NCBI RefSeq assembly: GCF_964355755.1
Contig: NC_092673.1
Span: 28,951,648 to 29,015,647, forward strand
Source of the DNA: Antedon mediterranea
Taxonomy: Eukaryota > Animalia > Echinodermata
Direction: 5' to 3'
DNA length: 64,000 nucleotides
Shown here: one piece after another, positions 24,314 to 64,000 of the stretch
How the letters are laid out: every line of letters starts with the position of its first letter
Numbering within the stretch: the stretch's first letter is position 1
Translations under genes and position numbers: made by a program
Notes under the pieces: model-generated
What the model saw: the letters and a program-made list of their open reading frames with translations, nothing else
Told to the model about the DNA's origin: nothing
Databases searched by the model: none

Positions 24314-24345
24314 GGGCGGTTCCTGGCAGCGTAGATGCTATATAA
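24314..24345 (+). promoter_or_regulatory. Putative MYP core promoter: GC box and TATA box
   Basis: GGGCGG at 24314-24319 and TATATAA at 24339-24345, about 90 nt upstream of the signal-peptide ATG at 24433. Confidence 0.6.
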
Positions 24346-24432: not shown

Positions 24433-24493
24433 ATGAAGTCGTTTATAGTGTTTAGCTTATTGGCGGCCGCTTTTGCTGTCCCAACTCCTAGCG
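24433..24493 (+). CDS. MYP: Signal peptide exon MKSFIVFSLLAAAFAVPTPS
   Basis: Basic N-terminus, hydrophobic core, AFA cleavage motif, G|GTAAGT phase-1 donor. Confidence 0.85.
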
Positions 24494-27400: not shown

Positions 27401-30400
27401 CGGTGGCTGACTATAAAGATCCCCTTCCCTTCCTGCTGTAGGCCTACCTCTCTCTTACGCCCGTATTCTTAAACCGGACTTTAGTCGTAGTTCGAGCTAA
27501 AACTTAAAAAATGACGTCATTTTAATTCATAAACCGAACTTCAACTAAATCACCGACTAAATCAGGCCAACCTCGACTAAATCGAGACGGATTTTGATCG
27601 ATTTTTTTAGTCCTGGAGGGGGCAGACTAAATGGTCGACTAAATGGTTTTTAAACGATGTTTATAAAAAACGTAACAATCATTGAGTTGTTATATTGGCC
27701 AGATATTGATGAATGAAATATCTATATTTATATTAGCTTAATTAAATATACATTGGTATAAATTATAATAATGAAAATCATCTTTATTTACAACTGTATA
27801 CAAATTACATTATTTTCTTCGCGCAAGTCCGACTTGAGCTACGTCACGCCATAGCGACAATGGGAGATGCGGCAATTCACCACGCGATGGAATGTTTAGG
27901 GGGCCTAGCGCTTTCTTGTCACGCTATGAAGTGCGTGGTTCGTGGCGATCATACTTTGTTGGGGCCTAAAAAATATAAAAGTTACCGTACCGCCATGGTT
28001 CCTAAATATATTTTTAAGATTTTATTTGTTGTTAATCAAATATACTTCACTGTTAAATTAATACTGATATTGTTCTAATAATTAACGATTAAAATTATTT
28101 TTCATGTATATAGTCCTGATGCGTAAAAAGTGTTGTAAGAAATGGAAAGTGATATCAATGCGCAAAATTTCGTCTGCTCCTCAAATACTCTCTTGTCATT
28201 GGCCAATGTATAGCCTTTGTTACCCAGACGTGTGCAACTCGACTAAAAGCTCGACTTCATTAAGTCGAACTGCAAACTTCGACTACTTCGTTTTTGAATC
28301 GAATTTGAAGTAATAGCTCGAACTACGACTTTTCCAAGTCGAACTTCGAACTACGACTAAAGTCCGGTTTAAGAATACGGGCGTTAGTCTTCCCTTTAAT
28401 GGCCTGTCACGATAAATATGGTCCGGGGCCAAAATCGGTCCGGCCGGACCAGTTTTGGCTCTAAAATTGTAGCCAAAAGCAGTCCGCCACTGCCAAAATC
28501 GGTCCGGGCTTTTCTTCTGTCGATTTTAATTGAATTACTAGGCCTATGATGCTGTTTTAAGTTGTTTATGGCTAGAAAAATATCCCATGATATATATTAG
28601 TAAGTTATCTTGTCGGATAAATACTATAAATAAATGTATTTTATCTAAAAACATGACTTAGGTGTTCACTCATATTTCGGCCTGCCACACACTCACACGA
28701 ACGGGTATGAGACGCTGATATTGCCAGCTAGATTTTATTTATGATTGAGGCATTTTTCCTTCCTCAGCCTAATCAATATTGGATAATTGTTTTATAATAA
28801 TTGTATTGAATTGATATATTGATTGATTAACCATAAATAATTAATAAATTAAATTGTTTTTAACATCATGGGGAAACGAAGATGTTAAAAAAGAACAATA
28901 TGGATTAAAAACAGGCAGAGATACATATTGTATACAAAAAGCCTAACAATTAGTACTTATTATTGATGAGTTACTACTAATAATGATAACTAGAAAAACA
29001 GGCTTAATTTATAATATTAAAATAACAAATAAAACCCATAGTTTTCAATATAATGACTAATACATTTTTTTTTTATGATATAATACATTATGACTCATTT
29101 TGCGCACCATATATTTGTAAGACCGGACCATATTTGGTGGCCAAAAACAGTCCTACTGCCCGGACCGATTTTATCCAGGCCGGACCAGTTTTGGCGGCCA
29201 AAATTGGTCCGGCCGGACAGGTTTTGGCAGCCATAAATGGTCCCCCGGACTGATTTTGGCAGCCAAAACTGGTCCGCCGGACCGATTTTGGCCCGGACTG
29301 ATTTTGGTGTGACAGGCCAATGTCCACTACATAATCCATTGCCAACTTGAATTTTTTTAAACAATAATATTGGTTCAAATGTTTCAAATTTGATGCACTT
29401 GATTGTATGACCCACTATATTAAAGTTTAAAAGAGGTAAAAAAAATATAGTTACTGCAGTAACTTCAGTGGAATAATTTTGACACACCTTGTAGTTGTTA
29501 ATTCAGAGTGGAGTAACTGGAGCGAATGTAGCGCTACTTGTGGTACAGCTACAAAGACACGTAGCAGACCGTGTGTAACCACCGACTGTGTTGGTGAAAC
29601 TACGGAAATAGTAGCATGTGATCTCGATGAATGTGAGAATGGTAAGAAACACAAAAACATTAATGTCTTCAATGATTTTGATTAAGAATAATAATTATTA
29701 AAGATGTATTGTCCCTTTGCCTAATTCTAAAAAAATAAAAGATTTCGAAAAAAGGTGGCTAATTTTGAAGTATCATAATAATTATTAACTTTCACCAAAA
29801 ATTTTTCGAAAAAAAAAATCATTTAACTGAAATACAGACGTTTTTTTGTTAAAAAAATAACTTTGACTTCCAGTCAAAGTTTTCGATCAAAACATATCCC
29901 ATAATGAAACGCGCTTGTTTGGCTACTCTGTATGCAATCATAAAACTGTGTGAAAATACCTTAATCTCAACCGTGACGAGTTGTAAACAATCCTAATTAG
30001 CATATGCATAATGCGTACTCATGGTTTGAAATCTTTGTTTACTTTCGCTCGCGACGATTTTCCAGATAAAATGTAATCAAACTAATTTACCTGTTAATTA
30101 CGTAAACTTCGAATTTTCGACTTAAAGTGAATAACTTTAATATTACTTTGATATGGCCACTTTAAATTTAGAATATTTTGACCTTCATTTTTTTGTGTTT
30201 AAAGGGACAATACATCTTTAAAGATGTAAAAAACATGAACAAATTAGATTTTGAATAGGCCATTTTGTAGGTTTAATAAAGTTGATCACTTCTCCAGAAA
30301 AAAAAATTAATGTTTTCACTTATAAAAAGACAAATAAAATTGGCTAGCAGCCAATTTGATAATTTTTTGCTTTAAATTATTTGTTCAGATTTGTCCTAAA

Positions 30401-33400
30401 TTATTAGGCATATAGAACATCAAAATGGCATATTCAACAAAATTTGGAACAATTATTTTTTCAGCAGGGACAATACATCTTTTATCTTAATTAGTATTAA
30501 GCTTTGATCTAACTGGCACAGACAACTTGCCTTCTATTCTTGACGCATACTGTACTTCTAATTTACAATATGCTGATACTCCCAATTATTGATTTGGAGC
30601 ACCAGAAGCAGCAGTAACACCTCTATAAAAGATGCTAAATAGAGCTCACCCTCTCATACACCCACTAATTACTTTTGTTTGTGTTTGGAACTTCTGTGTT
30701 CAAACAACTTGACTTAGTTCAATGTATCACTCTCTTCTGTTTATTTAGTGCATGATGGAAAAGGTACATTTAATGAATTTATTTACTTTACAGCTGGTCA
30801 ACTTGGCCCTGTCTGTGTTTTTATATTGTGATCTTATATTTCTCGGTGGTTAATTACAAACATGAACCTGTTTTTACTCTATTTTTAAAATTTTTTATAT
30901 AAATAATTTAATTCATGTTTGAAATGTACCAATTATTCAAGATTGATTATCAAACGCTTTGTGACCAACAATCGTCCAATCAAATGAGAAGAATATATTA
31001 AGGTGTGTTATTTAAATAACAAAAATTTAAAGACAAAATAGATGGTTAATTTTAATCAAAAACCAAAGACAATTTAGGTATTTTTGCTTTAAATTACATT
31101 TTTTTTGTTTTGGAAAATAATTTTTTTTTTTCAGTTTTGGGTCAAAGTGAATAACTATATTATTTTTAAAATGGCATATTCAATAAAAAAAAATTAGGGT
31201 AGTTTTTAGGGGGGACAATATATCTTCAATATTTACTATAAATAAAAATCTGAATCAATTAATAGTCTTGTGAAGTCTACTGATTTATTTACATCTATTT
31301 TATAAATTCCTCAAATTTATACTGTACATAAATGGAATAGGCCTATATTAATTTTACAACTTTGTGTGATTTTTAGAACCACACAACGGTAAATGTCCTC
31401 TTTTGACAACTGAGGAGCTAATGGCACGTTGCCCAAACACTGAATGTGAGACGGACACAGAGTGTGCTGATATGCAGAAATGCTGCCGTCTTTCTTGTAA
31501 ACATGGTGCTCGCGGATGCGTTGACGTCCAACCCAGTAGAAGCTTACAACACGGAGTTTTCACAGAAGGTGCTGTATCTCTATTTGCTTATTTTTTTATA
31601 AATAAGAAATTAATCAAAAAATGAACTTTGTTGGTAATGTTTTTTTTTTTCAAATTGTAAATTGTTTTCTAATACAAGATTTGACACCTATAATTTTTTA
31701 TTTTTCCTAAAAAACACAAAAACCGGTAAAAAAGTAATGAAAGTATTAATATATAGGCAACAAAATATAGATTACACTGTTTTGACTTTTTTGATATTTA
31801 TTTTTTTTTAGCATCCTATTGCTAATTTTGTCTTCCTCAACCTTGCTTTACAAACAACGATTGTACGTCAATAAATCAAGAGTTTAAGTGTTGTACAACA
31901 ATTTGATGATTTTATATACACTATTTTTTATAAATGTAATATAAGTATATTTGGTATCTGAGTCTCAAATTATTAACGCAATATTATTAGTTCATTGTGC
32001 GCATGCTCCCCACCTTGAAACAGATCCAGACAATGACCGACGAAACATCGATTATCTCACCTAGGTTGGTTGGTGGTTGGCGCGAATCGAAAGATCCCTT
32101 TTTTGAATTGAATTAAAGCTTTAAACTTTCTTTTTGCGAGATAAAAACAGTAGACAAATATGTTTATGTTAATAGTTCTTTATGTATTTATATAAATTGT
32201 AATTATCCAATCTTATATTTTTTTAATATACTGATTGCAATACAGATTATTGAAGTTGAAAAATAATAAAAGTAACATTTTATTTTAGGTACACTTCCAA
32301 TTTGCTCTGATTGCTCAGAAACAAAGTGTACAACAGACGTTGATTGTGTGTGGCTAGGTGATTATGATACATGCTGTGTGAATATGTATCAAGGTGATCA
32401 AGTCTGTGGTGTTCCAATGAGAACTTTAAATTCTAGTAAGCTCCAACATTGTATATCATAAAACTTTGAATGAAGCCCATGGGCTTCTTTTTTTATTGCT
32501 CTGGAGTGGAGTTTCCTTTCAAGATGGGCTTCTTTTTCGAGGTTACTTTTGCAAACGGAAGAGGAGGCTTCTTTTTTTCTTTTCTTTTGTGAATTGCTAC
32601 TAAAATAATAAGATAAGAGACATCTGCCAAGTTTAAATATTTATGATCAAACGATTTTTAAACATATGTATGATATAAACTCGATCATACATTATATCTG
32701 GCATTAAATCGCCTTGTTTCTTTGATATTCAAATTGTCTATCTAAAAAAGAAGCTCATATTATCTTGAAAAGAAGCCCGATGGGCTTCTTTTCGAGATTA
32801 GATTTTTAGACCAAAGAGGGGGCTTCTTTTTGAGTTGGGCTTCTTTTCAAGGTTTTTATTTACAAGAAGTTTCATATTACAATAAGGATAAATAATAATA
32901 GTATTAACATTGTTAAATAATTAACAGGTAAATTAGTTTGATTACATTTCGCCTGGAAAATCGTCGCGAGCGAAAGTAAACAAAGATTTCAAACCACGAG
33001 TACACATTATGCATGATGCTAATTAGGATTGTTTACAACTTGTCACGGTTGAGAAGGTATTTTCACACAGATCGCGAGGAAGTTTTATGATTATGCATAC
33101 AGAGTAACCAAACAAACGCGTTTCATTATGGGATATGTTTTGATCGAAAACTTTGACTGGAAGTCAAAGTTATTTTTTTAGCAAAAAAACGTCTGTATTT
33201 CAGTTAAATGATTTTTTTTTCAACAAATTTTTGGTGATAGTTAATAACTATTATGATACTTCAAAATGACCCACCTTTTTTCGAAATCTGTTATTTTTTA
33301 TTTTTTTGGAATTAGTCAAAGGGACAATACATCTTTAATATTACTTTGATATGGCCACTTTAAATTTAGAATATTTTGACCTTCATTTTTTTGTGTTTCA

Positions 33401-36400
33401 AGGGACAATACATCTTTAAAGATGTAAAAAACATGAACAAATTAGATTTTGAATAGGCCATTTTGTAGGTTTAATAAAGTTGATCACTTCTCCAGAAAAA
33501 AAAATTAATGTTTTCACTTATAAAAAGTGTATTTGCTTATTTTTTTATAAATAAGAAATTAATCAAAAAATGAACTTTGTTGGTAATGTTTTTTTTTTCA
33601 AATTGTTTTCTAATACAAGATTTGACACCTATAATTTTTAATTTTTCCTAAAAAACACAAAAACCGGTAATAAAGTAATGAAAGTAGTAACATATAGGCA
33701 ACAAAATATAGATTACACTATTTTGACTTTTTTTATATTTATTTTTTTTTAGCATCCTATTGCTAATTTTGTCTTCCTCAACCTTGCTTTACAAACAACG
33801 ATTGTACGTCAATAAATCAAGAGTTTAAGTGTTGTACAACAATTTGATGATTTTATATACACTATTTTTTATAAATGTAATATAAGTATATTTGGTATCT
33901 GAGTCTCAAATTATTAACGCAATATTATTAGTTTATTGTGCGCATGCTCCCCACCTTGAAACAGATCCAGACAATGACCGACGAAACATCGATTATCTCA
34001 CCTAGGTTGGTTGGTGGTTGGCGCGAATCGAAAGATCCCTTTTTTGAATTGAATTAAAGCTTTAAACTTTCTTTTTGCGAGATAAAAACAGTAGACAAAT
34101 AGATATCCTTTTATATACAGTGTACGTTGTCTCCTTTTAAAAATATGTTTATGATAATAGTTCTTTATGTATTTATATAAATTGTAATTATCCAATCTTA
34201 TATTTTTTTAATATACTGATTGCAATAAAGATTATTGAAGTTGAAAAATAATAAAAATAACATTTTATTTTAGGTACACTTCCAATTTGCTCTGATTGCT
34301 CAGAAACAAAGTGTACAACAGACGTTGATTGTGTGTGGCTAGGTGATTATGATACATGCTGTGTGAATATGTATCAAGGTGATCAAGTCTGTGGTGTTCC
34401 AATGAGAACTTTAAATTCTGGTAAGCTCCAACATTGTATATCATAAAACTTTGAATGAAGCCCATGGGCTTCTTTTTTTATTGCTCTGGAGTGGAGTTTC
34501 CTTTCAAGATGGGCTTCTTTTTCGAGGTTACTTTTGCAAACGGAAGAGGAGGCTTCTTTTTTTCTTTTCTTTTGTGAATTGCTACTAAAATAATAAGATA
34601 AGAGACATCTGCCAAGTTTAAATATTTATGATCAAACGATTTTTAAACATATGTATGATATAAACTCGATCATACATTATATCTGGCATTAAATCGCCTT
34701 GTTTCTTTGATATTCAAATTGTCTATCTAATAAAGAAGCTCATATTATCTTCTTTTCGAGATTAGATTTTTAGACCAAAGAGGGGGCTTCTTTTTGAGTT
34801 GGGCTTCTTTTCAAGGTTTTTGTTTACAAGAAGTTTCATATTACAATAAGGATAAATAATAATAGTATTAACATTGTTAAATAATTAACAGGTAAATTAG
34901 TTTGATTACATTTCACCTGGAAAATCGTCGCGAGCGAAAGTAAACAAAGATTTCAAACCACGAGTACACATTATGCATGATGCTAATTAGGATTGTTTAC
35001 AACTTGTCACGGTTGAGAAGGTATTTTCACACAGATCGCGAGGAAGTTTTATGATTATGCATACAGAGTAACTAAACAAACGCGTTTCATTATGGGATAT
35101 GTTTTGATCGAAAACTTTGACTGGAAGTCAAAGTTATTTTTTTAGCAAAAAAACGTCTGTATTTCAGTTAAATGATTTTTTTTTCAACAAATTTTTGGTG
35201 ATAGTTAATAACTATTATGATACTTCAAAATGACCCACCTTTTTTCGAAATCTGTTATTTTTTATTTTTTTTGGAATTGGTCAAAGGGACAATATATCTT
35301 TAATATTACTTTGATATGGCCACTTTAAATTTAGATTATTTTGACCTTCATTTTTTTGTGTTTCAAGCGACAATACATCTTTAAAGATGTAAAAAACATG
35401 AACAAATTAGATTTTGAATAGGCCATTTTGTAGGTTTAATAAAGTTGATCACTTCTCCAGAAAAAAAAATTAATGTTTTCACTTATAAAAAGTGTATTTG
35501 CTTATTTTTTTATAAATAAGAAATTAATCAATAAATGAACTTTGTTGGTAATGTTTTTTTTTTCAAATTGTTTTCTAATACAAGATTTGACACCTATAAT
35601 TTTTAATTTTTCCTAAAAAGCACAAAAACCGGTAAAAAAGTAATGAAAGTAGTAACATATAGGCAACAAAATATAGATTACACTGTTTTGACTTTTTTTA
35701 TATTTATTTTTTTTTAGCATCCTATTGCAACGATTGTACGTCAATAAATCAAGAGTTTAAGTGTTGTACAACAATTTGATGATTTTATATACACTATTTT
35801 TTATAAATGTAATATAAGTATATTTGGTATCTGAGTCTCAAATTATTAACGCAATATTATTAGTTCATTGTGCGCATGCTCCCCACCTTGAAACAGATCC
35901 AGACAATGACCGACGAAACATCGATTATCTCACCTAGGTTGGTTGGTGGTTGGCGCGAATCGAAAGATCCCTTTTTTGAATTGAATTAAAGCTTTAAACT
36001 TTCTTTTTGCGAGATAAAAACAGTAGACAAATAGATATCCTTTTATATACAGTGTACGTTGTCTCCTTTTAAAAATATGTTTATGATAATAGTTCTTTAT
36101 GTATTTATATAAATTGTAATTATCCAATCTTATATTTTTTTAATATACTGATTGCAATAAAGATTATTGAAGTTGAAAAATAATAAAAGTAACATTTTAT
36201 TTTAGGTACACTTCCAATTTGCTCTGATTGCTCAGAAACAAAGTGTACAACAGACGTTGATTGTGTGTGGCTAGGTGATTATGATACATGCTGTGTGAAT
36301 ATGTATCAAGGTGATCAAGTCTGTGGTGTTCCAATGAGAACTTTAAATTCTAGTAAGCTCCAACATTGTATATCATAAAACTTTGAATGAAGCCCATGGG

Positions 36401-51400: not shown

Positions 51401-54400
51401 TTTTGTGTCCCTAGTGCCTGCGAATACAAGAAATGCCAACGTATGGTCAATGAGTTGATTTATAATCTAATTCCACGTCAAGATTGGAGATGTATACAGG
51501 CTGAGTCAAGAGAACACTGTGCATACTTGTAAGCCCCATTCAGTGATTTTATTGATTAATAGATAAATTGATTGATTGATAATTTATTTATTAATAGATA
51601 AATTGATTGATATATAATTTATTGATTAATAGATAAATTGAGTGATTGATAATTTATTGATTAATAGATAAATTGATTGATATACAATTTATTGATTAAT
51701 AGATAAATTGATTGATATACAATTTATTGATTAATAGATAAATTTAGTGATTGATAATTTACCTCATAATTGTTTTGGCTATTATTGAACTTTTTTTTTA
51801 GTTAAGTTATTTCAATTGATTTTTCAAATAAAGTCATTGATTGATAGATATATTGATTAAGACACTTTTGATTGTAGATAATTTACATTGATTGATAATA
51901 ATATTTCATTCTATTTATTTCATTAAAGTATGGAAGCCCGATCGGGCCACAAGTTAACTATATTTTAAAAGCTGTTATCTGGCGGCCGCCACTTAATTAT
52001 CTGGTGGCCGCCACTTAATTATCTGGCGGCCAGATAACAGCTTTTAAAATATAATTAACTTGTGGCCCGAACGGGCTTCCGTATCAAAGCATTAAAAAGA
52101 TACAACAAAACAATGAGTGATAGATACATTTATTTAAAGACATATGCAGTACAGTTGTACAATTATAAATACAATGTTGAATCAATTGATAATAATAATT
52201 ATTTATTTGTCTGTGTGTATTAGGGTTTCTAAAAGATTTGCTGATGTAGCTGTTGCCCGTGTAGATGGCATTTATACCGCTATCAAAAAGTACAAATTGA
52301 AACCAATTGCGTACGAGGCACCTGTCATCAAGGTATAGTCAGCTTATATTAAGTTTTGTTTTTTTTAGAAAATTCTGTTAGAGTATAGGTAGTGCCTAAT
52401 TTTAACCTAACCTTTTATTATTTAAATCACAGATCTCACCTTAAATATATATTGTCCCTCTAAACATAAAAAATAAATGTTTTTAACTTTTTTAATGTCA
52501 CATAATAGTTGTTTCTTGCTACTTTTAAATCTTCACTCTGGGAAACATATTATAAAACCAATTTTTTACCTTTACTATTGTAACTAAATAGTTTACATTT
52601 TTTTAAAGTATTGTATATATGTTATTATTATATTATGTTGTCACTGAACCATTGAAAGTGTTAAATAAAAAAGAAATAAATAAATATTGTACTCTTTTCA
52701 CATAATCATTAAACCATTTTTTCCAATCCTTTGCATCAAATACATGCAAATGTCAAAATCTTGAAAAAACGTCTAAACACAGAAGCATTTCCTGTTTTGT
52801 TTCTAAACAATATAGATGGATACCAGCGCTATTTAAGTTTGATTGATTGAGATGCATAGAGGCTTATCCATAATCTTGTGCTTCTTATATCTTGACAGGG
52901 TTCATCGGAATCTGAGGCATTGAATGTATGGGAAAGTATCACTCTTGCCATAACTAAAAGAGATAATTCAGACATCAGCAGATGGTCTGATCTTCGTGGA
53001 AAGAAGTCTTGCCATGCCGGCATCAAAGAGATATTCAGCTTCAAAGCACCAGTCTGCAGTCTGATCCAAAAGGACATCATTCCACGGAATGGAGATTATG
53101 TTGAAAGTGCTAGTCAGTATTTCTCAGGAAGCTGTGTTCCTGGTAAAACACTTTGTTTGCTATCTTTTTTGCAAATGGATATAAGATTTTTGTTTTAATT
53201 TAATCCGCATAGGATAGGACACACACACACCCATGCTTTCTACAGTATGAGATGTGGTACGATAAAGATGTGGCACTTTTTGACCAAAGAGAAAAGTTTA
53301 TGGGAATATATTCAAAAACTGACCTAAAAACCTAAGCACTTCTTTTAGCCTTTTCAACAATAGTCATGGATTTTTTCAAAATCACTAAAATTAGGAACTT
53401 TTTAAATTATTATTGTGCTCTAATATTTCTTGCAATGACATAATTTAGTCACTCTAAAACCCTGTCTACACTATTAAAATAATCTGATGAAGTGTGATGT
53501 GACATCATCATGTCCATGTATGAGCACATCACATTTTTATATTGTATAGACAGAACTTTAAACTTTTTTTTTATTTCAGTTAACTAATTCTATTTATTGA
53601 TTATCTGTACAGTATCCATGTAAAGCTCTGTCTATACTATATGTCAAACTTTATGTGACAAAATCATATATACAATATGGGCATATCACACTTTTTTATC
53701 AAAATAGTTTGATAGTGTAAACAGAGGTTAATTTGTATTAATAGGTATTCTTGATGAGAAATATAATGTTCAATCTACCTACCCACTGAAACTCTGTGAT
53801 GTTTGCGCTAAAAACAACGGACTTTGCGGCATTTCTGATAGATACGCAGGCATTGAGGGCTCTCTTCAATGTATCGATGAGTCAAAGGGACAGGTCACGT
53901 TCATTGACAACAAATCTTTGGAGAAGATTATTGCTGATGGCGGTAAGACATGTTCAGAAATAGTCAAAAGAAAGGGTTACTAAGAAGATTATTTCTCAAC
54001 AGAAAGTCTTTTAAATGTAAATTAAAGGCTTAAGATCATAATAATAAGATTCTGCACTCACTCTATACAATAAAAACAGTTAATATAGACCTTATGCAGG
54101 TAAATTAAACAATAGTGTAATACAAATAAAACTATAAATAACATGAAATAAAAGTTGTACTGTATCCCACACAGAATCTCCTTTTAAAACTTTCAAATAT
54201 ATGTCATAACACTAACATTGACGTCTACTCAAAAGTGTTACTAATGTTGCTCCTGTATTCGGGTCGCCATCTTTGTGAGAGTCACTTATAACAGCGTTGA
54301 TGATCATGCACAAACATTTCTTAAATTTACATGAGTCTATTGTTTCAATTCAACAATCTAATTTGCATACATTTTAATATACAGGTGCAAGCAAATACAA

Positions 54401-57400
54401 GGTGGTCTGTGAAGGAGAATCTATTGACCTTGAGAATGACGCCAACTCGTGGAAGACCAACAAAGCTTGTCACCTTGCTGTGACCCCTAGACCCACGGTG
54501 ATGGTCAGCCCTCACAAAACCGCGGACTATATTAGTACTGTTATGGACCTTTTGGCCAAGGCATCTAAAGTAAGTTTGTAGTGTGATTAAATTTACTGCA
54601 TGTATAGTAGTAAGGTTTGCTGTATACACAGATTTAGTAAACAGATGACAAAATGCTAAAACACATCTTGTGTTGAAACAGACAAAGTACTGTACAGATG
54701 TTTAGTTTACACTTCTTAATCTTAGTTTGACAAAAAAAAATGTGATGGGTGCCCATATATGGACACGATGATGTCATATCACTACTATATTTGGCACATC
54801 ACACTTTTTTTGTTAGACCGAACTTAAGACAAAATAATATGCAAAATAAAGATGGTTAAAATAACTATATCCAAATAAAAATATGTTATGTATTAGTAAT
54901 ATTTTTGGTGCCAACAGAATTATGGCAAGAAGTCTGTGAGCAGCTTTAAACTGTTTGAGTCTCTCAGCTACAAATGTCAAATCAGTGAAGGCGTCTACGA
55001 AAAAGATGTTATCTTCAGAGACGCTGAAGCGCAGGAGATACGTGAATTTGTGCCCATTGGTGATAAACCTTTTGCCGCAGATTACATCCAAGAGTATTCA
55101 AGCTGCATGAAAATGGTTCCTCAACCTAGGGCTAAGTTCTGTGTTGTTACTCGGGCCGCCTTTGACAAGTGCTTAAAGATTAAAGAAAACTTTGACAAAA
55201 CGGAATTGGTAAGAAAAAAAATTTTTTTTAAGATCACACAGACAAAATAGATAAGATAAAATGCTTGGATTGGACCAAATTCTGAATTTTTGTGGGGAAT
55301 TCTGTTTTTCAGAACACGCATACCCTTAGGGCCAAAGTATTTCTCCAATTAAAACGATTGGCCAGAGTTTTAAAACATATATTGCCCTTTGTTAGGTGTT
55401 TCCAAAAGGAGGGATTCTACTGTAACAATTCTTAATAATAATGTTGGGTTATGGATGATACAGTAAGGAGCGAACACTGCAGAGCACTGGCTATATATTT
55501 TTGGTATTGCTTTTTGTGTGTTTATAGGTTAATACAGTAGCATGGGGATGTGTGTTGAAGCCGTCCAAAATGGAGTGTATGCGAGCTGTACAGGAGGGAT
55601 CTGCAGATCTTCTATCAACCGACGCCACTGAAACATTCATTGCGGGTCGTGAGTTCAAACTTCAACCAATCCTCAGCCAGTATTTTGATACCCTTACTAC
55701 TGTAAGTTCAGTTTGTTGGTTTTATACAGATATGTGTTTACTATGGCAGAACACATATAATTTAGAAACGAAATTTGGCGTTGATAATAATTTGCTGTGC
55801 ATGCTTGGCATCCAATTAGGTGTAAAATAAAATAGAGGTTCAATTTGACTGGCACTGAACCTTCTTAGAGCTATTTGTCTTACTGACCATGCAACAACAT
55901 AAATCTTCAAAAGAGTACCTTTCATTACCATCATGCAATTGCTTTAATATAGTCATCTGGATAAATAATAGTAGTATTAATATTAATTGAAAATTTTATT
56001 TTAGGATATTTACCCAGGCATCACCAAGAATGCATTTAATGATACTACCTACACGTACACCATTGGTATCATGAAGAAAGATCGGTTTTACGATTTATAT
56101 GGTGCTGATACCCGTGAAATCACCAGTCTACGTGATTTGAACACTTGCCATGCTGGCATGAAAAAAGTGAGTTCGGTAAACTAATATAGTCGTTTCATAT
56201 TCTGAAGTATTAAATCAACATTTTTATTTGATGTGTAAAGCTCTGTCTACACTATCAAACTAATTTGACCAAAAAAAAGTGTGATGTGTGCAAATGGTAT
56301 TGATATATGTCATATATGGGCACATCACATTTTTTTGTCACATCAAGTTTGAGAGTGTAGATAGTGCCTAAGGCTTACAAATAGTCTTGTTTTTATATGG
56401 AGTTTTTGTTTTATATTTCAGTTGTCATCCTTCCACCATCCTATTGGCTGGCTCTTGGCCAATGGAACTGTTCCACGTATCGGTTCAATTTTTGAGTCCG
56501 TCAAAAGATACTTTGGCCGTTCTTGCCTTCCAGGTAAACAAAGAAAAAATATATTTGAAACTATTTATTTTTTTATATTTGTTTGTGATCTTTTCTAATT
56601 CATAGAGTTAAGCTCAGTCTACATTATCAAACTATTAACAAAAAGTGTGATGACATTTTTTTGTGACGTAAAGTTTATAGTGTAGACAGAGCTTTATTTG
56701 TCTCGCACAATACTAAACCATAACTTTGTATAGTCGGAACAGGCTTTAAGATCATTTTTTTTTTTTTTTACAAGGATCTGACCCGGCCATATGGAGAATG
56801 GATGCTGATTTGCTAATGGGCCATGAAATTAACTGGGGATTCAGGAGCCTAAACTTCTACAACTTTACTGGTTTTGATTGGTTCATTTGGAACTCACCAG
56901 CCACCTGGAATTATTACAACTGGAACAAATATACTCCAGCGTAAGAATAAGCATCTAAAATTCTCATCAATAGTAGAACATCATGTCTGTAGTCATGAGG
57001 GTTAGAGTATTTAAAAGGCCCCCCTCCCTCCCCACTTTAGCAGTGGAAGTAACGGTATATAAGGCTTGCCTAGCTTGTGATGATTAAATAGCCTTCTTCG
57101 GCAATGGCAATGAAATAGATATTGCTTGCCTACAAAATTTTAGAATAATGGGTGATTATATTTGTACTTGTTTTTGAGGTCACATGTCACTTGAAGAATG
57201 ATTCAGAATTGCTGGGGTTTGGAAACTAGTGAGCGTTTTAGCCTATAAATTGTAAAATAAAGTGTTGAACTTTATCTACTAAAGTTTTATATTCCATCCA
57301 GCAATGTATTTTTCTAAATTTAGAGGAGAGGAAAGGTTTGGTGTGTGGTTGTTGATATGTAGGTTAATATCCCGGTTAATATGCTGTGGACAGAGTTTTA

Positions 57401-60400
57401 AATGTGTTATTGGCTAATAATCATTTTTATAAACATTCTGCAGTTGTAGCTTTGTAAATGTATTTTCTGTTTTCTTATACAACAGCACTCTGAAATCATT
57501 GCTGGAGTTAGTTGATGAAGAAGTGGGAATTTCAAGAGTTGAACACGGTGAACATGAGGACATTGATTGGGATATGCTGGAAGATATCCTCAATTACCCA
57601 GATGGTCTCATGGTAGGTGCCTTTAGCTATTTCTGCTGGCGAAGTGCTCAATTAAAGCAAACTCATTTATGGTGTTCTAGTATTTTAAATACTGTATAAG
57701 TAATAATGCTCCACATCTATTTTCAACTGGAGATTGAATATTATTTGTATATAACCATTATAATGTTCTTGTTGTAGTCACCAGAATTGGACGATCCTCC
57801 TATCAACATGTTCAATTCCAAGAGAAAAGAGTGAGTAGAATCATATTATTCACTTACAGAATTTAGCGGTAATATTGGAATTCAAGATTCTGGATTCAAT
57901 TCCTGTCAGATGTCAAGATTTTTTTCTCATGATAAAAAGACTTTGTTTGTGTACAGGGTTCATGGCTATGGCTATCATTGACAATTTGCTAAATTAAGAA
58001 TAAACTCCTAAACCTAAAATTAATTAACAATTATTTCATTTTTGATTATACACTAATTATGAAATTACTTTATCATTTAATGATCAATTAGATATTATAT
58101 AAATAAATTGCCAACGTTTGTTGTTTGAGAAGAAAGTATTACCGTAAGATCAATTTGTTCTTTTCAGAAGCGACAAACAAATAAGGAGGAAGATATTGTC
58201 ATATGCGCTTCAAACACGCACAGAGAGAATGGAAAAATTAGGAGAGATCATGCAATTACTTCACAACATTCCAACTCTACAAGACATCCGCACGGACGAT
58301 GAGGATTGGCTCAGCCATCCAGCTGTTCAGGTAAAATGGTTTTCTGTCTTTTTTCTCTTTTTTTCTTTCCTCTTGTGTTCTACTCTCCTTTTTCCTTGCC
58401 TGTTTTTACTTACCTTCTTTCTGCTTTTTTTCTTCCCTTTACTGGTGCTCTATTTTCCTTCTTCCTTTGCTTGTGTTTCTGCTTCATTTTCCCCTAAGCT
58501 TGTGCTTATTTCTTTTTAATTTTTGATTAAGCTCGACGTGTGTAAATAACATGTCTATTTTAGCCTGTCACCTCAGGTTCTTTCAGCTTCTGTCGAAATT
58601 CAGCTCTATTCGTATTTTATTTCTAAATCATATTGTCATTTTGTCTATTCAATGTAATCCTAGCATAAAAATATATATATAAAATTAATTTATATTTATT
58701 TACTAGAGTTACCTCCAGATATACTTCCCAAGCATGGTCGGTTTTACCAGCGAAATATTTGAAGATGCAGAAATACGTAAACGTGAATTCAATCGATATA
58801 ATAACCCAATCTGGCTGTCTTCAGGCTATGCTGATTTTGTTAACACCATGCAGGTAACTGAAAAATATTGTAACATCTGTTTTTAATAAAAAAATAAACC
58901 ATATTATGATTATAATAATTGTAGCTACATAATATAATTATAATAAATAAAAGATGCTTGTTAGTTATTATATAATATTAAGTTATATATGGTGCCCTAA
59001 CCAAGAACAATACATACACTACTTAAGTCTTATATTAGGATGATGATATACTGTAAGATAGATTTGAGCAAAAGTAATACATTGTCTAAACGAACACTGT
59101 GAAACATAGTTACAATAATTCAGCATAGTCTAGCTCACAATCGATATATAATCCCATAAATTGATTGTGTAATAAAATGCCTCTGACGGGACAAGAACGT
59201 ATGTAAAAAAAAGTTTATGATACATTGTATCAGTGATCACCTACAATATGCTGTCAACTGGTTGTTTTGAGTAAAAACCCCTGAGATCTTAAAAGGTTGT
59301 GGCATCTGTTCTTTTACAGCATTTCCTCAATTTGGCTAATTAAACTATATACAACAACATTCATTTTATTTCCTTAGTCCTACCAGAAAGATATGTGCAG
59401 TAGCTGCATTGGATATGGAGACAAGAAATGCCAAGAGACAACTGCTGAACCATATTATGATTATGCTGGTGCTCTTGCTTGTCTGGAAGAGAAAGGTGGT
59501 GACATCTCTTTCTTTGAAGCTCAAGAATTCCAGAAGCTCCTGAACGCCGATAGTTCTAAACGACCAGAAGAATACATTCTTGTTTGCCCAACTGGTGCGA
59601 TTAGGTTGTACGAGAAGGATGTCAGCGTTGTTGAGCAATGTAACTTTGGCAGAGTTCCTTATCCTGCTGTTGTGACTGGTCAGGAAAGAACTGGTAGGTT
59701 CTTCTTGAATTCTTTGAACTCATCAGTCAATATAACTACAGGTATACAGTAAACTGTAGTTGCTTTGGTACAATCCTCTTCAAAGGACACTCCTGCTATA
59801 AGAACAAGGTCTAGTTTAACACAATGGTCAACCTCTATTTAAGGATTATTAAGGGAACACTTTAATTGGTCCCTAAGGTGTCCTGTTAGATTATATACTG
59901 TAATGCTATGTCCAGAAACCCACAGTGTTTTGTAGACCTTTGCCGTTTTCTTGCATTGTTGGTCCTGAAGTTGTCCCGTTAATAGGTGATCTACGTATTT
60001 GTATCATTCCCGTTCTTTAAGTGTTCAGGGCCTCATGCATGTCAGCCTCCGCTGTTTTGAGTCACCCTCATTAAACAAAGTTTAATCAAATAAAAAAATA
60101 ACATTTTTTTTTAAATATGCTCAGAAACCCAAAGAAACCTTTTATTAAGAAGAATGGTAAAATTAAAGGAGTATTTTATTTACAGGCACATGGAGATGGG
60201 AAGTAACCAAAGCTATACTGGAGGCTCAAAAGACCTTTGGCGTTGTCCAGCATCGTGAACAACAGCATGAAGCTCAATTTACCATATTTGGCGTGAACAG
60301 CGTGTTTGATGTAGCCACCACTGAAGTGAAACCAATCGATATCTTAGACCAGATCTATGAAGTGTACATCGGTCAGAACCTTCTCCGTTCCATGGAAGCC

Positions 60401-62121
60401 ATCATCAAGCCATCTAACTGTATGTGGAATCACTAATAATTGTTTTCAGTTATAAGAAAATTGTAGTTGGTGGTTAACATGCCTGCCTTCCCAAGATTCA
60501 GGGTTGTAACGCGCAACTCTACTGCAACGAGACTTTGTTTAGAAATACAGTAAATTATAAAATAGTTTATCCATCCTATAGTGAGTTCTTACTCAATTTA
60601 GCGTGAGCTGAGAAAACAGTAAAAACTGAGTTATAGATTCCTCAATGTTCTTTAATTGGAGTGTCAAGGTCTTATAAGTTTGACCACCTATTATCAGATC
60701 CTCCAGTAAAAAATTCTTAGAACAATATTGTGTTTTTCTTGTATTTAGTGGATTGGTGGAAAGAAGATGCACACAAGTGTTACGGTGAGACGTACTCCAG
60801 CGTCATCGTCGAGCGTCAAGGAGGCTGTAACGCTGTCATCAAAGATTTAATATGTATTGGTGCCCCACCAGCTAAAGTCCTCTCTGTAGGACGTTCTGGT
60901 GTTAAGAAAGCAGTAACCACAGAAATGTGCAGGTATATTTAATTTTTAAAATTTTTCCAAATTATTATTAACCTTTTGATCACCAATCGAAACTTTAGTC
61001 AAACTCCTAAATAGATAGATAATTGAAATGAATTTTGGAATAATGCTTGATTAATTAATTTTGAATGGTGCATATTTTTGTAGCTTTTCATTGAAATTGT
61101 TATTTTTCAACTAATTTTTCAAAATATATATAATAATATATACCCACAGCATTGTCATTTTTTCAGTAATTTGCCTTTGGATTTATATAATAATATATAT
61201 CTATATATAGTCTTTATTTTTTATCCCAATTGTATTTTTGTACGTTCAACGTTTTCAACTTATGGACTGCTTGTTTATACCGTAATAAACAAATTATAAA
61301 AAAACCTTGCTTGTCACAAATAACACTAAAACACAAAAAAATTAAAAAAATTGGAACAAAATATCAAAATGTTAAGAAGATAAGAATACAAATAAGCATG
61401 ATCAATAAAATATAAAAATAGTAAAACTACTGACAGTAGTGAAAATGGTTCCTCTGCATATTCTTCAATTTTTATATATAAAGCACTTAAAAACTATTGT
61501 ATAGGCACTATAAAAGACAATTAAATATCATACTTAAAATTCACTCCAGATTGTCTCGCTCTAAGTTCTTAGTATTTATATGATGTTTTTATTGTGTTGA
61601 CAGCCGTCCGACCAAACACATCAAGAAACCAGCAGAGTTCACCTGCGAAGATGGAGAGGGTTATACCAAGTATGTCGATGTGGCTGTCAACTGTGAATGT
61701 GTGCCGTGTGAAGATGTGACATACACGCTGGAATGGACAAAAGACAGTTATTGGAAGTCTGATGCCAAGACGTATCAGAGGAACAGAGGAACAACCAAAG
61801 AGACGGATTACAACCTCTGGGGTACGTGGTTCTTGTTGATTATGTCTGATTGGTCAATAGTGGCACTGTTGCTTGGTGATAATAATAAAATAGCAATAAA
61901 ATCTATGATAGGTTTTTATTGGGCATTTAAAAAAAAATAAAACATTCTCAATAACTGGCCTATGAGTCAATTTTTGCAAAGTAAAAATAAACTGGTTTAC
62001 TCACCTGCTGTTAAGACCAACTCCTGCCCTTTATAATCTTTTTGCTATTTTTTAACAATTAAATATTGATGATCTTTTTTTATTCTTTACAGGAAACAGA
62101 CTGGAGGGAAGATCAATTTAA
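24433..62121 (+). CDS. MYP: Major yolk protein/toposome-like secreted transferrin-family protein with N-terminal TSP1/WAP/kringle expansion; 35 exons, 6033 nt, about 2010 aa if all exons are included
   Basis: Signal exon 24433-24493; fifteen phase 1-1 module exons in 29495-45552; core exons 51318-51528, 52224-52332, 52899-53142, 53745-53942, 54385-54569, 54918-55208, 55528-55701, 56005-56166, 56422-56533, 56775-56940, 57486-57612, 57778-57830, 58168-58330, 58707-58853, 59378-59693, 60186-60419, 60749-60932, 61604-61821, 62093-62121 (TAA). All junction phases are compatible. Transferrin motifs: IRFCV, LRGKKSCHAG, YFSGSCVPG, PYYDYAGALACL, CNFGRVP. Confidence 0.82.
25124..26973. mobile_element. 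Non-autonomous hAT-type element with internal ~200-bp tandem repeats
   Basis: Imperfect TIR CATAGTTGCCA...TGGCAACGCTG; 8-bp duplication GCGGCGGC at 25116-25123 and 26974-26981; subterminal GGCATTAT/GGCATAAT motifs; about 4 internal repeats at 25760-26600. Confidence 0.8.
27174..27205. mobile_element. 32-bp perfect palindrome with 7-bp flanking duplication (TIR-only element)
   Basis: CAGGGAGTTGTAAAAT|ATTTTACAACTCCCTG flanked by GGCCGAC on both sides. Confidence 0.7.
27458..28383. mobile_element. PIF/Harbinger-type element, copy 2 (inverted relative to 1996-2910)
   Basis: Same TIRs; TTA duplication at 27455-27457 and 28384-28386. Confidence 0.9.
28401..29318. mobile_element. Non-autonomous DNA transposon with GGTCCGGCCGGACC subterminal repeats (superfamily unassigned)
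   Basis: TIR GGCCTGTCAC...GTGACAGGCC, AAT on both flanks, repeated CCGGACC/GCCAAAA motifs at both ends. Confidence 0.75.
29495..29641 (+). CDS. MYP: Thrombospondin type-1 repeat exon
   Basis: WSNWSECSATCG..TKTRSRPC..C..E...C...C; 147 nt, phase 1-1. Confidence 0.9.
29702..30217. mobile_element. Kolobok-like non-autonomous element
   Basis: TIR AGATGTATTGTCCCTTT...AAAGGGACAATACATCT flanked by TTAA on both sides; fragments recur in the tandem array. Confidence 0.7.
31377..31568 (+). CDS. MYP: WAP four-disulfide-core exon
   Basis: GKCP..RCPNTECETDTECADMQKCCRLSCKHGARGCV, 8 Cys; 192 nt, phase 1-1. Confidence 0.88.
31812..31909 (+). pseudogene. Decayed WAP-like pseudo-exon (repeated in each array unit)
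   Basis: After a strong T-tract/TAG acceptor it reads SYC*FCLPQPCFTNNDCTSINQEFKCCTTI*; no donor; internally deleted in units 3 and 4. Confidence 0.65.
32289..32435 (+). CDS. MYP: WAP-like 7-Cys module exon, copy 1
   Basis: TLPICSDCSETKCTTDVDCVWLGDYDTCCVNMYQGDQVCGVPMRTLNS; 147 nt, phase 1-1. Confidence 0.75.
34274..34420 (+). CDS. MYP: WAP-like 7-Cys module exon, copy 2
   Basis: Same as copy 1 except the last base; G|GTAAGC donor. Confidence 0.78.
36206..36352 (+). CDS. MYP: WAP-like 7-Cys module exon, copy 3
   Basis: Same as copy 1; A|GTAAGC donor. Confidence 0.75.
38159..38305 (+). CDS. MYP: WAP-like 7-Cys module exon, copy 4
   Basis: Same as copy 2; G|GTAAGC donor. Confidence 0.78.
38942..39091 (+). 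CDS. MYP: WAP-like 6-Cys module exon
   Basis: LNDICRTPDKFTITYLLCKTDANCKQGTFCCFGAGIPYCVKPK; 150 nt, phase 1-1. Confidence 0.82.
39391..39546 (+). CDS. MYP: WAP-like 6-Cys module exon (type B)
   Basis: MCPPNYFPNYFTEIPCSVNNICPNGMICCLDSKDSRICAYPK; 156 nt, phase 1-1. Confidence 0.85.
39673..39710 (-). ncRNA. Minimal type I hammerhead ribozyme (Penelope-like element remnant)
   Basis: Minus strand: CUC-CUGAGGA-C-GGUCAA(AGCA)UUGAUC-GAAA-CGUC-GAG. It has both core boxes, a 6-bp stem II, palindromic ACGU stem III, a GUC cleavage triplet and a CUC/GAG stem I. Confidence 0.7.
39711..40005. repeat. 14-bp GC-rich minisatellite, about 21 copies
   Basis: Unit GCAGTGGCGGCATT; it explains the cluster of overlapping spurious ORFs here. 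Confidence 0.95.
40178..40441 (+). CDS. MYP: Kringle domain exon 1
   Basis: CY..DYRG...TISGKACQYW..PHKH...[20 protein letters not shown]..RYEMC; 264 nt, phase 1-1. Confidence 0.93.
40661..40816 (+). CDS. MYP: WAP-like 6-Cys module exon (type A)
   Basis: LNSMCPESNNHVFFTNIACSSDNECEEDLLCCFRESVGQVCAFSK; 156 nt, phase 1-1. Confidence 0.85.
41124..41279 (+). CDS. MYP: WAP-like 6-Cys module exon (type B)
   Basis: LNSLCPLSSFPGYFTNIACGTDDDCPSDLLCCHGDNVGQACAFSK; 156 nt, phase 1-1. Confidence 0.85.
41477..41617 (+). repeat. 41-bp tandem repeat (about 3.4 copies) spanning the kringle-2 acceptor
   Basis: TTTTCAG|AAT recurs with CAG at 41489, 41530, 41571, 41612. Confidence 0.9.
41615..41875 (+). CDS. 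MYP: Kringle domain exon 2 (absent from the ORF track)
   Basis: CYKIENAVDYRGAANTTISGKACQSW...[27 protein letters not shown]; 261 nt, phase 1-1. Confidence 0.93.
43074..43229 (+). CDS. MYP: WAP-like 6-Cys module exon (type A)
   Basis: Close paralogue of 40661-40816; 156 nt, phase 1-1. Confidence 0.85.
44270..44533 (+). CDS. MYP: Kringle domain exon 3 (alternative in-frame acceptor would start at 44246)
   Basis: [43 protein letters not shown]; 264 nt, phase 1-1. Confidence 0.92.
45394..45552 (+). CDS. MYP: WAP-like 5-Cys module exon
   Basis: GYECNTVHDCINIFGPNAICCNSNGHLVCAEPTYAKSLIS; 159 nt, phase 1-1. Confidence 0.75.
45595..47056 (+). mobile_element. 5'-truncated, frameshifted non-LTR retrotransposon (RTE-like reverse transcriptase)
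   Basis: RT motifs CFIDLTAAFDHVNR, GVRQG, YADD, FRYLG, LTYGC..W, WIGHVIR; (CAGTAC)n tail; ACAAG duplication at 45590-45594 and 47057-47061. Confidence 0.88.
47184..50968. mobile_element. Academ-type DNA transposon derivative organised as a 3.8-kb fold-back
   Basis: Termini TAGTAGGC...GCCTACTA with TAC duplication. Decayed coding motifs EEADERMFVH, VDSDVVV, GCD.TSS, PPTSAAL.EH, P.NWGW and a Cys-rich tail occur on both arms in opposite orientation; ~125-bp subterminal repeats. Confidence 0.82.
51550..51760. repeat. AT-rich ~30-bp degenerate tandem repeat
   Basis: Recurrent ATTGATTAATAGATAAATTGATTGAT. Confidence 0.8.
51929..52083. mobile_element. Small palindromic MITE-like element
   Basis: About 55-bp inverted arms TATGGAAGCCCG..TGTTATCTGG / CCAGATAACA..CGGGCTTCCGTA around TTATCTGGCGGCCGCCACTTAA repeats; no clear TSD. 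Confidence 0.65.
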
Positions 62122-62949: not shown

Positions 62950-64000
62950 AGAGGGCGTGTTTAGGATGATAAAAACAACAACCAGAGAAAAATAAAAAGG
63001 CAAGTCTTCAATATTCGTCGACAGAAGAAATCGTCTGGTAAATTTTAATGTTTTTTACAATCATTTGTGATCATAGATATAGTCGTCTGTATAATTAAGT
63101 CTAGCATAAACTATTTTTACGCCGACTTAATTCTAGGCCTTGCCTAATAATAATAGCTTAGGCCAAGCAAACCAAAAAAGAAGTCTAGGCCTAGGCCCTA
63201 GGCTATATGGCCTACTAGCTAGCTAGGGTACTAGGCTATGCTAGGCCTTCCTTCTAGTCTAGGCCCTTTAGGGCCCGATTGTGCCTGACAGTGACATGCT
63301 TCCCGTTGTTTGGTACGTGGTACTGGTAGGCATAATCTGCCTTAAAGAAAGATCAGACGTGATCCAAGTTTCAAAGATTTGATAATTACAATTTTTTTTG
63401 CGTGTTGTTTTTTGTGTTTGCTCTCAAACCGGTCATCATCCAGCAAAGTATATGTAGTACAGAGATGCATATGATTGTAAATTCTCTTTTTTATGAGTCA
63501 TGCATGCATGAGACCAACTTACTATCCATGGCATAGAAGTTTGCCCAAAATAGGAAAGTTCATTTTTATTCACAAGAGGTTTTAAGGACACATTTTTGTG
63601 AATAATTATGTTTTTATATTGAAGGTTTTTGTCAAAACAAGATTATTATGCCATTTTTAAGGAAAAAACAAAGCCATGAGGGAAAGAAGAAAATGGAACA
63701 TAAAATGTACTTGGTAAGATTCATTTGCTTCTGTTCATTTTTAGAGAAATTACATTCTTCCATGTTTTACAATATTTAATTATGATATTAATTGGATCTA
63801 CCTACCTACCTACCTACCTGTATTAATGCTTCTGTGCCCGTCTTGACAAGAACATATTCTTCTTTGATGGGCTATATTTTAACAGGTGATCAGACCAGAA
63901 CTTTTTTAGTGCAGTTATAAATTGGTTTAGAATTTAAAATATTGTAAATTGTAGTTCTGTTTTTTTTTTAGGCACGAGAGAGTCCTGAGCCAACCTTTGA
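62950..64000 (+). other. Possible promoter and 5' exons of a further, unidentified gene
   Basis: GGGCGTG box, donor-like CTG|GTAAAT near 63037, CTAGGCC-rich tract, donor TTG|GTAAGA near 63713 and a strong T-tract acceptor at about 63971. Too little coding sequence to identify. Confidence 0.3.

Follow-up and report, generated by a model that had tools for sequence, protein, structure and literature searches.

From our analysis of a stretch of 64,000 nucleotides (nt) of the crinoid Antedon mediterranea (contig NC_092673.1, positions 28,951,648 to 29,015,647; hereafter the window), we identified a crinoid gene which, judged by its sequence, is orthologous to those for the major yolk protein (MYP), or toposome, of other echinoderms. 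Fifteen small modules lie between its signal peptide and its transferrin-like core, and it is somewhat probable that these are spliced in varying subsets onto the core, giving a secreted carrier with a multivalent N-terminal tether. Rebuilt from AG/GT sites on the forward strand, the join of 35 exons from 24433 to 62121 (a signal exon, 15 module exons and 19 core exons) is one open frame of 6057 nt, with a predicted product of 2018 amino acids (aa) plus stop, ~226 kDa and 131 Cys, in which the arm between signal peptide and core accounts for 891 aa.

The MYP gene and its core

All 15 module exons are stop-free and in phase 1-1, between the phase-1 donor of the signal exon and the phase-1 acceptor of core exon 1 (51318). 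They follow one another as TSP1 (thrombospondin type 1), WAP, four copies of W4, W5, W6, kringle 1 (K1), W7, W8, kringle 2 (K2), W9, kringle 3 (K3) and W10, that is, one TSP1, one WAP, ten WAP-like and three kringle exons. An earlier note on this DNA had described 15 intact exons with the same tally, and the rebuild confirms them; its open join also holds, while its length of 6033 nt falls 24 nt short of ours, within the range of alternative in-phase splice choice. The note had left out two features, the four identical W4 copies in a tandem repeat and the weak donor of the WAP exon at 31568 (score -0.3; an alternative at 31535 scores 4.5). Compared with the GT sites nearby, 14 of the 15 donors in the cassette rank above the 95th percentile. 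As a chance control, we listed phase 1-1 open AG..GT frames with at least five Cys after a pyrimidine filter: the + strand of 24.5-51.3 kb gave 17 starts, namely 13 of the 15 module exons (K1 and K3 failed the filter) and four inner starts of the repeated exon, and there were none on the - strand of that interval or on the + strand of the upstream 24 kb. A frame break by a missing exon was ruled out, a 53-nt exon at 57778 restoring the MYP frame.

The core matches Pfam Transferrin in four of ten core exons scanned and is 65% identical to the MYP-like protein of Anneissia japonica over 1114 aligned aa. In a core tree of 17 rows, with support from the Shimodaira-Hasegawa-like approximate likelihood ratio test (SH-aLRT) only, Antedon is sister to Anneissia (100) within an echinoderm clade (100) and apart from ordinary transferrins; the sister clade of this crinoid pair unites ophiuroid-like and echinoid MYPs, and the orthologues of hemichordates and amphioxus branch outside. 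The traits of the subfamily are all present: a signal peptide, two transferrin-like lobes, an insert in lobe 2 and a Cys-rich tail. Within that tail, 61604-61821 has a weak cystine-knot match (E 0.006; Glandiceps E 0.016), a possible dimerisation module.

A part of this gene is already in RefSeq as XP_071948893.1 (Antedon mediterranea, 'uncharacterized protein'), which equals aa 409-2010 of our model over 1602 identical aa. It starts at a Met inside W6, joins W6 through W10 to the core at the same exon boundaries, and thus includes the three kringles; it has no signal peptide, TSP1, WAP, W4 copies or W5. At its other end it passes over 61821, which is the true last donor, and so merges MYP with the downstream LRR-SAM-RING gene. 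Our model corrects this truncated and fused entry.

Modules of the arm and history of the kringles

The kringle exons (six Cys) score 84.6, 83.6 and 80.0 bits against Pfam PF00051 (cut-off 34.3) and the TSP1 exon 42.8 bits against PF00090 (cut-off 21.6), which places them in the kringle and Thrombospondin type 1 families. The best Protein Data Bank (PDB) matches of single kringles are of plasminogen / apolipoprotein(a) / HGF type (E 1e-23). Pfam WAP was matched above its cut-off by the WAP exon, W7, W8 and W9 and just below it by W5 and W6; W10 and W4 had no match (one of four W4 copies was scanned; the copies share the module sequence). The eight Cys and four disulfides that define PF00095 are found only in the 31377 exon, whose best PDB sequence matches are elafin and SLPI (E 0.007-0.04). 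We term W4-W10 WAP-like because their Cys counts fall short of eight, with six in W5-W9, seven in W4 and five in W10. In the six-Cys units the second and seventh Cys, which we take to be one disulfide pair, are missing together, and this paired loss suggests folded three-disulfide units. Four of the ten WAP-like exons (W4) repeat a single exon, identical over 48 codons (0 differences), and the tandem units that carry them (1.93-1.99 kb) are ~99% alike; compared along their full length, the units differ by 5-15 substitutions and 21-55 gap columns.

The kringles are under purifying selection, with ratios of non-synonymous to synonymous change (dN/dS) of 0.16, 0.24 and 0.21 in all three paralogue pairs. 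Among the WAP-like pairs the ratio is 0.33 for W6/W8 and 0.36 for W5/W6, and three pairs are saturated. K3 aligns with plasminogen kringle 2 across the lysine-binding pocket, and K1 and K2 share its pattern (Asp-x-Glu). With the pocket residues of plasminogen kringle 2 as reference, the Antedon kringles appear to keep an Asp/Glu, Trp, Arg, Trp(Tyr) pocket of that type.

Only two of the 15 MYP relatives retrieved carry kringles, the Antedon RefSeq model and P0009, a Logan record; there was no named sea-cucumber or sea-star MYP among the 15, of which P0060 may be asteroid. P0009 is a 1447-aa protein on an intronless contig of 4689 nt, which we infer to be a transcript because the frame is so long without introns. 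Its signal, WAP, kringle, WAP and core stand in one frame, and therefore a fusion of kringle and MYP is viable. The P0009 kringle lies between the two WAPs common to Amphiura, and its core is sister to that of Amphiura (100) in the 17-row core tree. Among the best 150 transferrin-family representatives a kringle was found only in P0007; this library hides kringle cases, because P0009 is absent from the 150. TSP1 (Pfam) had no match in 14 MYP relatives, two Anneissia isoforms and 25 of the 150 representatives. The earlier note knew of no transferrin with kringle or TSP1 domains, which still stands for TSP1 among the relatives scanned and no longer for kringles, given the RefSeq model and P0009.

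The three Antedon MYP kringles form a clade in trees of 68 rows (100/91) and 33 rows (100/97), the smaller set being four MYP kringles and the kringles of eight named deuterostome proteins, after 35 of 68 rows (unnamed or non-deuterostome rows and two near-duplicate proteins) were dropped. In the 33-row tree they join crinoid kringles from outside MYP, those of an Antedon SRCR protein and of a plasminogen-like Anneissia protein (95/91), a grouping unsupported in the 68-row tree. The P0009 kringle is 49-54% identical to those of Antedon MYP, and in each run none of the 200 bootstrap trees groups it with them, but the approximately unbiased (AU) test does not reject a single clade of Antedon and P0009 kringles (p 0.076, 33 rows). 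Kringle presence on the core tree requires two changes. Going by these sequences, two gains of the kringle would be likelier than one gain and several losses, which is not proven. Conceivably, the first intron of MYP is a recurrent site of exon capture where kringles were recruited twice, in Antedon and in a brittle-star lineage, toward a lysine-targeted, plasminogen-like carrier; we regard this as a tentative idea with the odds against it. If true, the convergence would have made an abundant carrier of coelomic fluid into a multivalent protein directed at wounds, clots or microbes, and this in two classes that are known for arm autotomy and regeneration.

Transcripts and rival gene structures

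The 24433 exon is the only strong match in the window to the N-terminus of Anneissia MYP (E 7e-5; next 0.18), and its signal peptide shares 11 of 20 residues with that of Anneissia; the signal exon and the core very probably belong to one gene. The earlier note had read the locus as one gene grown by exon shuffling, and both points are supported by signal-exon orthology, the architecture of orthologues, purifying selection and the clipping at splice sites in probable RNA. The last of these comes from run X1: for a stretch with an exon share of 38%, it contains 0.37 of the words, where runs X2-X5 contain 0.94-0.98. For the six single-copy X1 contigs listed on exons, seven of the 12 ends fall no more than 2 nt from a predicted splice site (40441, 41614, 41873, 44245, 44533, 51529 and 52897), three inside exons and two in introns. 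The contig on K1 ends at 40441 with seven loose letters, that on K2 matches 41614-41873 and is preceded by 29 and followed by 144 loose letters, and those on K3 clip at 44245 and 44533, so that the K3 acceptor 44246 is used by these RNA-like contigs. Contigs of run X4 cross introns at which X1 contigs stop. Reading run X1 as RNA, which is itself a guess, we take spliced transcripts to use all three kringle exons. It is quite likely that the kringles are joined to the core in some mRNA. The architecture is real and probably belongs to one alternatively spliced gene, and P0009, from a second lineage, independently supports a fusion of kringle and MYP; an isoform with all 15 modules is possible and somewhat doubtful.

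Several observations weigh against a modular arm spliced onto the core. Run X1 is only probably RNA, by guess, and comes from one study at a depth of ~4-8; two of its contigs begin inside introns, 99 nt before core exon 1 (51219) and 60 nt before K1 (40118). No X1 contig links the cassette to the core, the complete X1 joint table has no K3-W10, W10-core or K3-core joint (sides to 21 letters listed), and 29 loose X1 letters after K3 stayed unplaced. The read comparison covers only sequence outside 24.4-38.8 kb, the interval of the signal exon, TSP1, WAP and the four W4 copies; these exons, together with W5, are also the ones that RefSeq did not join to the gene. Readthrough past the W10 donor meets a stop after four codons. 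The ratio for W7/W9 is 0.83, with few changes. Foldseek searches with AlphaFold models of W8 (predicted local distance difference test, pLDDT, 75.7) and W4 (82.1) gave no match at E 0.001; in the top rows above that value, WAP proteins took six of nine places for W8 and SLPI was at rank 4 for W4. Two further read results are to be taken with care: a depth of 0 in run X1 over the W10 bin 45430-45675 at 98% likeness was not counted as evidence, and another table, dominated by repeats, in which 15 of the 535 joints and 12 of the 1669 loose ends were listed, did not reveal the partners of exons.

It is highly improbable that there are two genes, one with TSP1, WAP and kringles owning the 24433 exon and an MYP whose first exon lies in the 5.8-kb interval 45553..51317 or is not in the assembly. 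In favour of this, the X1 contig that covers core exon 1 reaches upstream with 27 unplaced letters near a good acceptor-like site at 51214. The 24433 exon, however, is homologous to MYP signal peptides, stops close the frame upstream of 51318, and the interval is mostly transposon (a fragment of a long interspersed nuclear element, LINE, and a fold-back element), in which the two hydrophobic ATG candidates for a second signal exon were rejected, being without strong donors or family likeness. We also consider it unlikely that the modules, though intact, are mostly skipped or polyadenylated off, leaving a main mRNA of signal, few modules and core and a separate cassette-only product from the same promoter. 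A strong W10 donor and a normal core acceptor (51318), the kringle and core of P0009 in one frame, and the joining of W10 to the core in the RefSeq model all argue for inclusion; against them stand the frame-neutrality of every module, six Anneissia isoforms that differ in WAP exons, the lack of a bridging X1 contig, the unplaced exon after K3 and the in-frame stop just past the W10 donor, which makes a cassette-only product by readthrough possible.

As for the number of modules, that the four W4 copies are an assembly artefact, or a neutral and very recent tandem duplication, is rather unlikely. It would account for identical exon copies in units ~99% alike, but the substitutions and gap columns per unit exceed what a collapsed or duplicated read set usually has, and it touches the module count only, leaving the kringles unaffected. 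A further reading keeps one gene and makes the arm mainly an array of protease inhibitors, which would shield the stored carrier against proteases of yolk or coelom in the manner of the thyroglobulin repeats of saxiphilin. In its favour, WAP domains include elafin and SLPI, the best PDB matches of the eight-Cys exon; saxiphilin is a transferrin with Thy1 repeats that inhibit cysteine proteases (PMC6584486), and has relatives with 3, 7 and 12 Thy1 stretches; and toposome is processed by proteolysis (PMC5854732). Nevertheless, the spacing C1-x6-C2-x8-C3 (6/8) that is tied to the antiprotease activity of WFDC domains (PMC11408880) occurs in none of the cassette WAP units, which are therefore not of elafin/SLPI type: the WAP exon has a C1-C2-C3 spacing of 11/4, and the six-Cys units lack C2. 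Kringles and TSP1, moreover, are not typical inhibitors. We therefore hold an inhibitor array to be improbable, and the 'protease-inhibitory' arm of the earlier note is poorly supported. A tether is favoured over an inhibitor array because no WAP unit has the 6/8 spacing, and from the sequence it might be the main role, at a little under an even chance.

Table 1. Positions of the features of the MYP gene in the window.
Feature	Position	Strand	Basis or remark
TATA-like box	24339..24345	+	~95 nt before ATG; sequence, putative function
Exon 1, signal peptide of 20 aa, phase-1 donor	24433..24493	+	match to Anneissia MYP N-terminus
TSP1 exon, 6 Cys	29495..29641	+	Pfam TSP_1 E 6e-11; alternative in-phase acceptor 29507
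WAP exon, canonical 8-Cys	31377..31568	+	Pfam WAP E 1.7e-7; alternative donor 31535
W4a, 7-Cys WAP-like, copy 1/4	32289..32435	+	aligns with other modules on 5 invariant Cys
W4b, copy 2/4	34274..34420	+	tandem repeat
W4c, copy 3/4	36206..36352	+	tandem repeat
W4d, copy 4/4	38159..38305	+	tandem repeat
W5, 6-Cys WAP-like	38942..39091	+	Pfam WAP E 0.001, under cut-off
W6, 6-Cys WAP-like	39391..39546	+	internal Met is start of RefSeq model; Pfam WAP just under cut-off
K1, kringle 1	40178..40441	+	Pfam E 6e-24
W7, 6-Cys WAP-like	40661..40816	+	Pfam WAP E 2e-6
W8, 6-Cys WAP-like	41124..41279	+	Pfam WAP E 3e-5
K2, kringle 2	41615..41875	+	Pfam E 1e-23
W9, 6-Cys WAP-like, recent paralogue of W7	43074..43229	+	Pfam WAP E 5e-6
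K3, kringle 3	44246..44533	+	Pfam E 2e-22
W10, degenerate 5-Cys WAP-like, last cassette exon	45394..45552	+	without Pfam WAP match
Phase-1 intron between cassette and core, 5.8 kb	45553..51317	+	LINE fragment and fold-back element inside
MYP/toposome core, 19 exons	51318..62121	+	two transferrin-like lobes, second split by large insert, then Cys-rich tail
Core exon starts	51318, 52224, 52899, 53745, 54385, 54918, 55528, 56005, 56422, 56775, 57486, 57778, 58168, 58707, 59378, 60186, 60749, 61604, 62093	+	

The window also holds several repeats. The LINE fragment of the cassette-core intron is a truncated reverse transcriptase (~45650-46850; RVT_1 E 2e-7). The fold-back element (~47190-50980) is 3.8 kb long and matches itself in inverted orientation over almost its whole length; each arm contains tandem subunits of ~154 nt, and the decayed transposase-like frames point inwards. 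A joint 47182 -> 50974 in run X4, among the joints listed, may reflect an empty site or a copy elsewhere that has a deletion. An element of ~940 nt is present in two inverted copies (1988-2914 and 27454-28391) that are 95% identical, one of them within the first intron of MYP. A palindromic, very high-copy element of ~160 nt, resembling a miniature inverted-repeat transposable element (MITE), occurs at 41971-42123 and 43893-44051, both in cassette introns, and at 4639-4799, with huge contig depth in runs X1 and X4. Simple tandem arrays at 6638-7670 (C-rich unit), 39705-40050 (14-nt) and 51513-51790 (35-nt) give rise to long spurious open frames. As for the neighbours, the fusion in XP_071948893.1 runs via spurious exons at ~62965-63039 and ~63624-63719 into the LRR-SAM-RING gene, which we take to be LRSAM1-like. 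Upstream, at ~3100-18600 (+), lie coiled-coil exons of another gene (3103-3381, 11084-11326 and 16386-16730), with weak Pfam coiled-coil matches only, which we presume to resemble the C-terminal part of EVI5/EVI5L.

Relatives, function and meaning

The closest orthologue is the MYP-like protein of Anneissia japonica (XP_033098842.1 and isoforms, X1-X6 in RefSeq), with the same type of signal peptide, a WAP array of varying number and the core. Unlike that of Antedon, its arm consists of eight-Cys WAP units only: the two isoforms scanned of six have 10 and 7 WAP stretches, and kringles and TSP1 are found neither in these nor, by eye, in the other four. The WAP arm is therefore a crinoid trait, with the kringles and TSP1 as the new part. 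Thus the baseline of the earlier note, a signal and one WAP, gives way, with 7-10 WAPs in Anneissia isoforms and two in the brittle star Amphiura, and the architecture had already been annotated in orthologues for its WAP portion (Anneissia), though not for kringle and TSP1. What is known already is the WAP arm, by annotation, and the kringles, unrecognised in one faulty RefSeq model; TSP1 is in no relative scanned. A full-text literature search for MYP with kringle found none, in a library that lacks most primary MYP papers, and titles and abstract starts held nothing on a crinoid or kringle-bearing MYP. A basic furin-like site lies between the WAP arm and the core of Anneissia MYP (P0006, residues ~620-630), and none was seen in the Antedon arm-core linker on comparison with it; the fate of the arm may therefore differ, being shed in Anneissia and kept in Antedon.

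Sea-urchin MYP/toposome (Paracentrotus Q6WQT5, Diadema) resembles the Antedon protein in being secreted, with a bilobed transferrin-like core, a split second lobe, a Cys-rich tail and changed iron ligands, and falls in the same core-tree clade. It is shorter (~1340-1350 aa, where the Antedon protein has ~2018 aa and as many as 15 modules, kringle and TSP1 among them) and differs in having at most one Pfam WAP match (Diadema; none at E 0.05 in five others). P0009 shares with Antedon a plasminogen-type kringle in the N-terminal arm of an MYP, but has a single one, between two WAPs and not grouped with Antedon's three. The kringles of plasminogen, apolipoprotein(a) and HGF have the same six Cys and a pocket of plasminogen kringle 2 type; in Antedon, unlike in those proteins, there is no protease domain and kringles alternate with WAP-like units on a transferrin core. 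Saxiphilin likewise combines a transferrin scaffold without classic Fe3+-binding with an expandable array of small disulfide modules, but it is a vertebrate protein with Thy1 repeats inside the N-lobe, shown to inhibit proteases (PMC6584486). Transferrins P0101, P0105 and P0116, with 12, 7 and 3 thyroglobulin type-1 stretches, are saxiphilin-like with much expanded arrays.

At the iron-ligand positions of transferrins, the Asp, Tyr, Tyr, His and Thr/Arg anion site of a classical iron-binding lobe are complete in neither lobe. The N-lobe has Asp->Arg, second Tyr->Ile, His->Pro, Thr/Arg->Ala/Glu and a first site without Tyr; the C-lobe keeps Asp and the second Tyr, with the first Tyr ambiguous, His->Pro and Thr/Arg->Ala/Lys. 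Both lobes thus have altered iron-ligand motifs, the first completely and the second in part. This agrees with the description of toposome as an 'iron-less Ca2+-binding transferrin' that forms oligomers, undergoes processing and is implicated in adhesion (PMC5854732), and with MYP as a gut-made zinc carrier of coelomic fluid (PMC13666137). Iron binding through other residues may still be conceivable, because urchin MYP is called iron- and zinc-binding, and half of coelomic-fluid protein, in PMC2702171, where the sea-cucumber gene is also induced by lipopolysaccharide (LPS). The yolk, zinc and adhesion roles are reported for urchin MYP (PMC13666137, PMC5854732) and would be putative in crinoids. 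The main yolk protein of sea stars and brittle stars is vitellogenin (PMC10799875), and therefore a 'yolk' role in crinoids cannot be assumed; the literature passages that join crinoid, vitellogenin and MYP hold no crinoid data. 'Yolk', as the earlier note used it, is a family name, and the papers found give no crinoid function.

Hemichordate and amphioxus orthologues have no module at the MYP N-terminus and the echinoderms sampled have one or two WAP-type domains. We propose that the phase-1 intron after the signal exon would have been a landing zone for modules: crinoids may have expanded the WAP exon, and the Antedon line may have acquired two further exons, one for TSP1 and one for a kringle from a crinoid family of kringles, the latter then being triplicated along with flanking WAP-like exons. 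As in sea-urchin MYP, the core would make an oligomeric protein of coelomic fluid that binds Zn/Ca and is not an iron carrier. The kringles would bind exposed lysines on proteins and TSP1 glycosaminoglycans, the three-disulfide WAP-like units might be spacers or surface binders, and the odd-Cys units W4 and W10 could cross-link subunits via inter-chain disulfides. Oligomerisation would make weak sites avid, and the carrier would be targeted to cells, matrix, clots or microbes.

The phase-1 shuffling of mobile modules in echinoderms is an ordinary process; its outcome here brings kringles and TSP1 into the transferrin superfamily, and the number of modules at the N-terminus of MYP/toposome now ranges from none in hemichordates and amphioxus to 15 in Antedon. 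What MYP does is still debated, with roles as nutrient store or zinc carrier and in adhesion or immunity under discussion (PMC5854732). In essence, natural MYP variants with recognisable binding modules make its non-nutritive roles testable.

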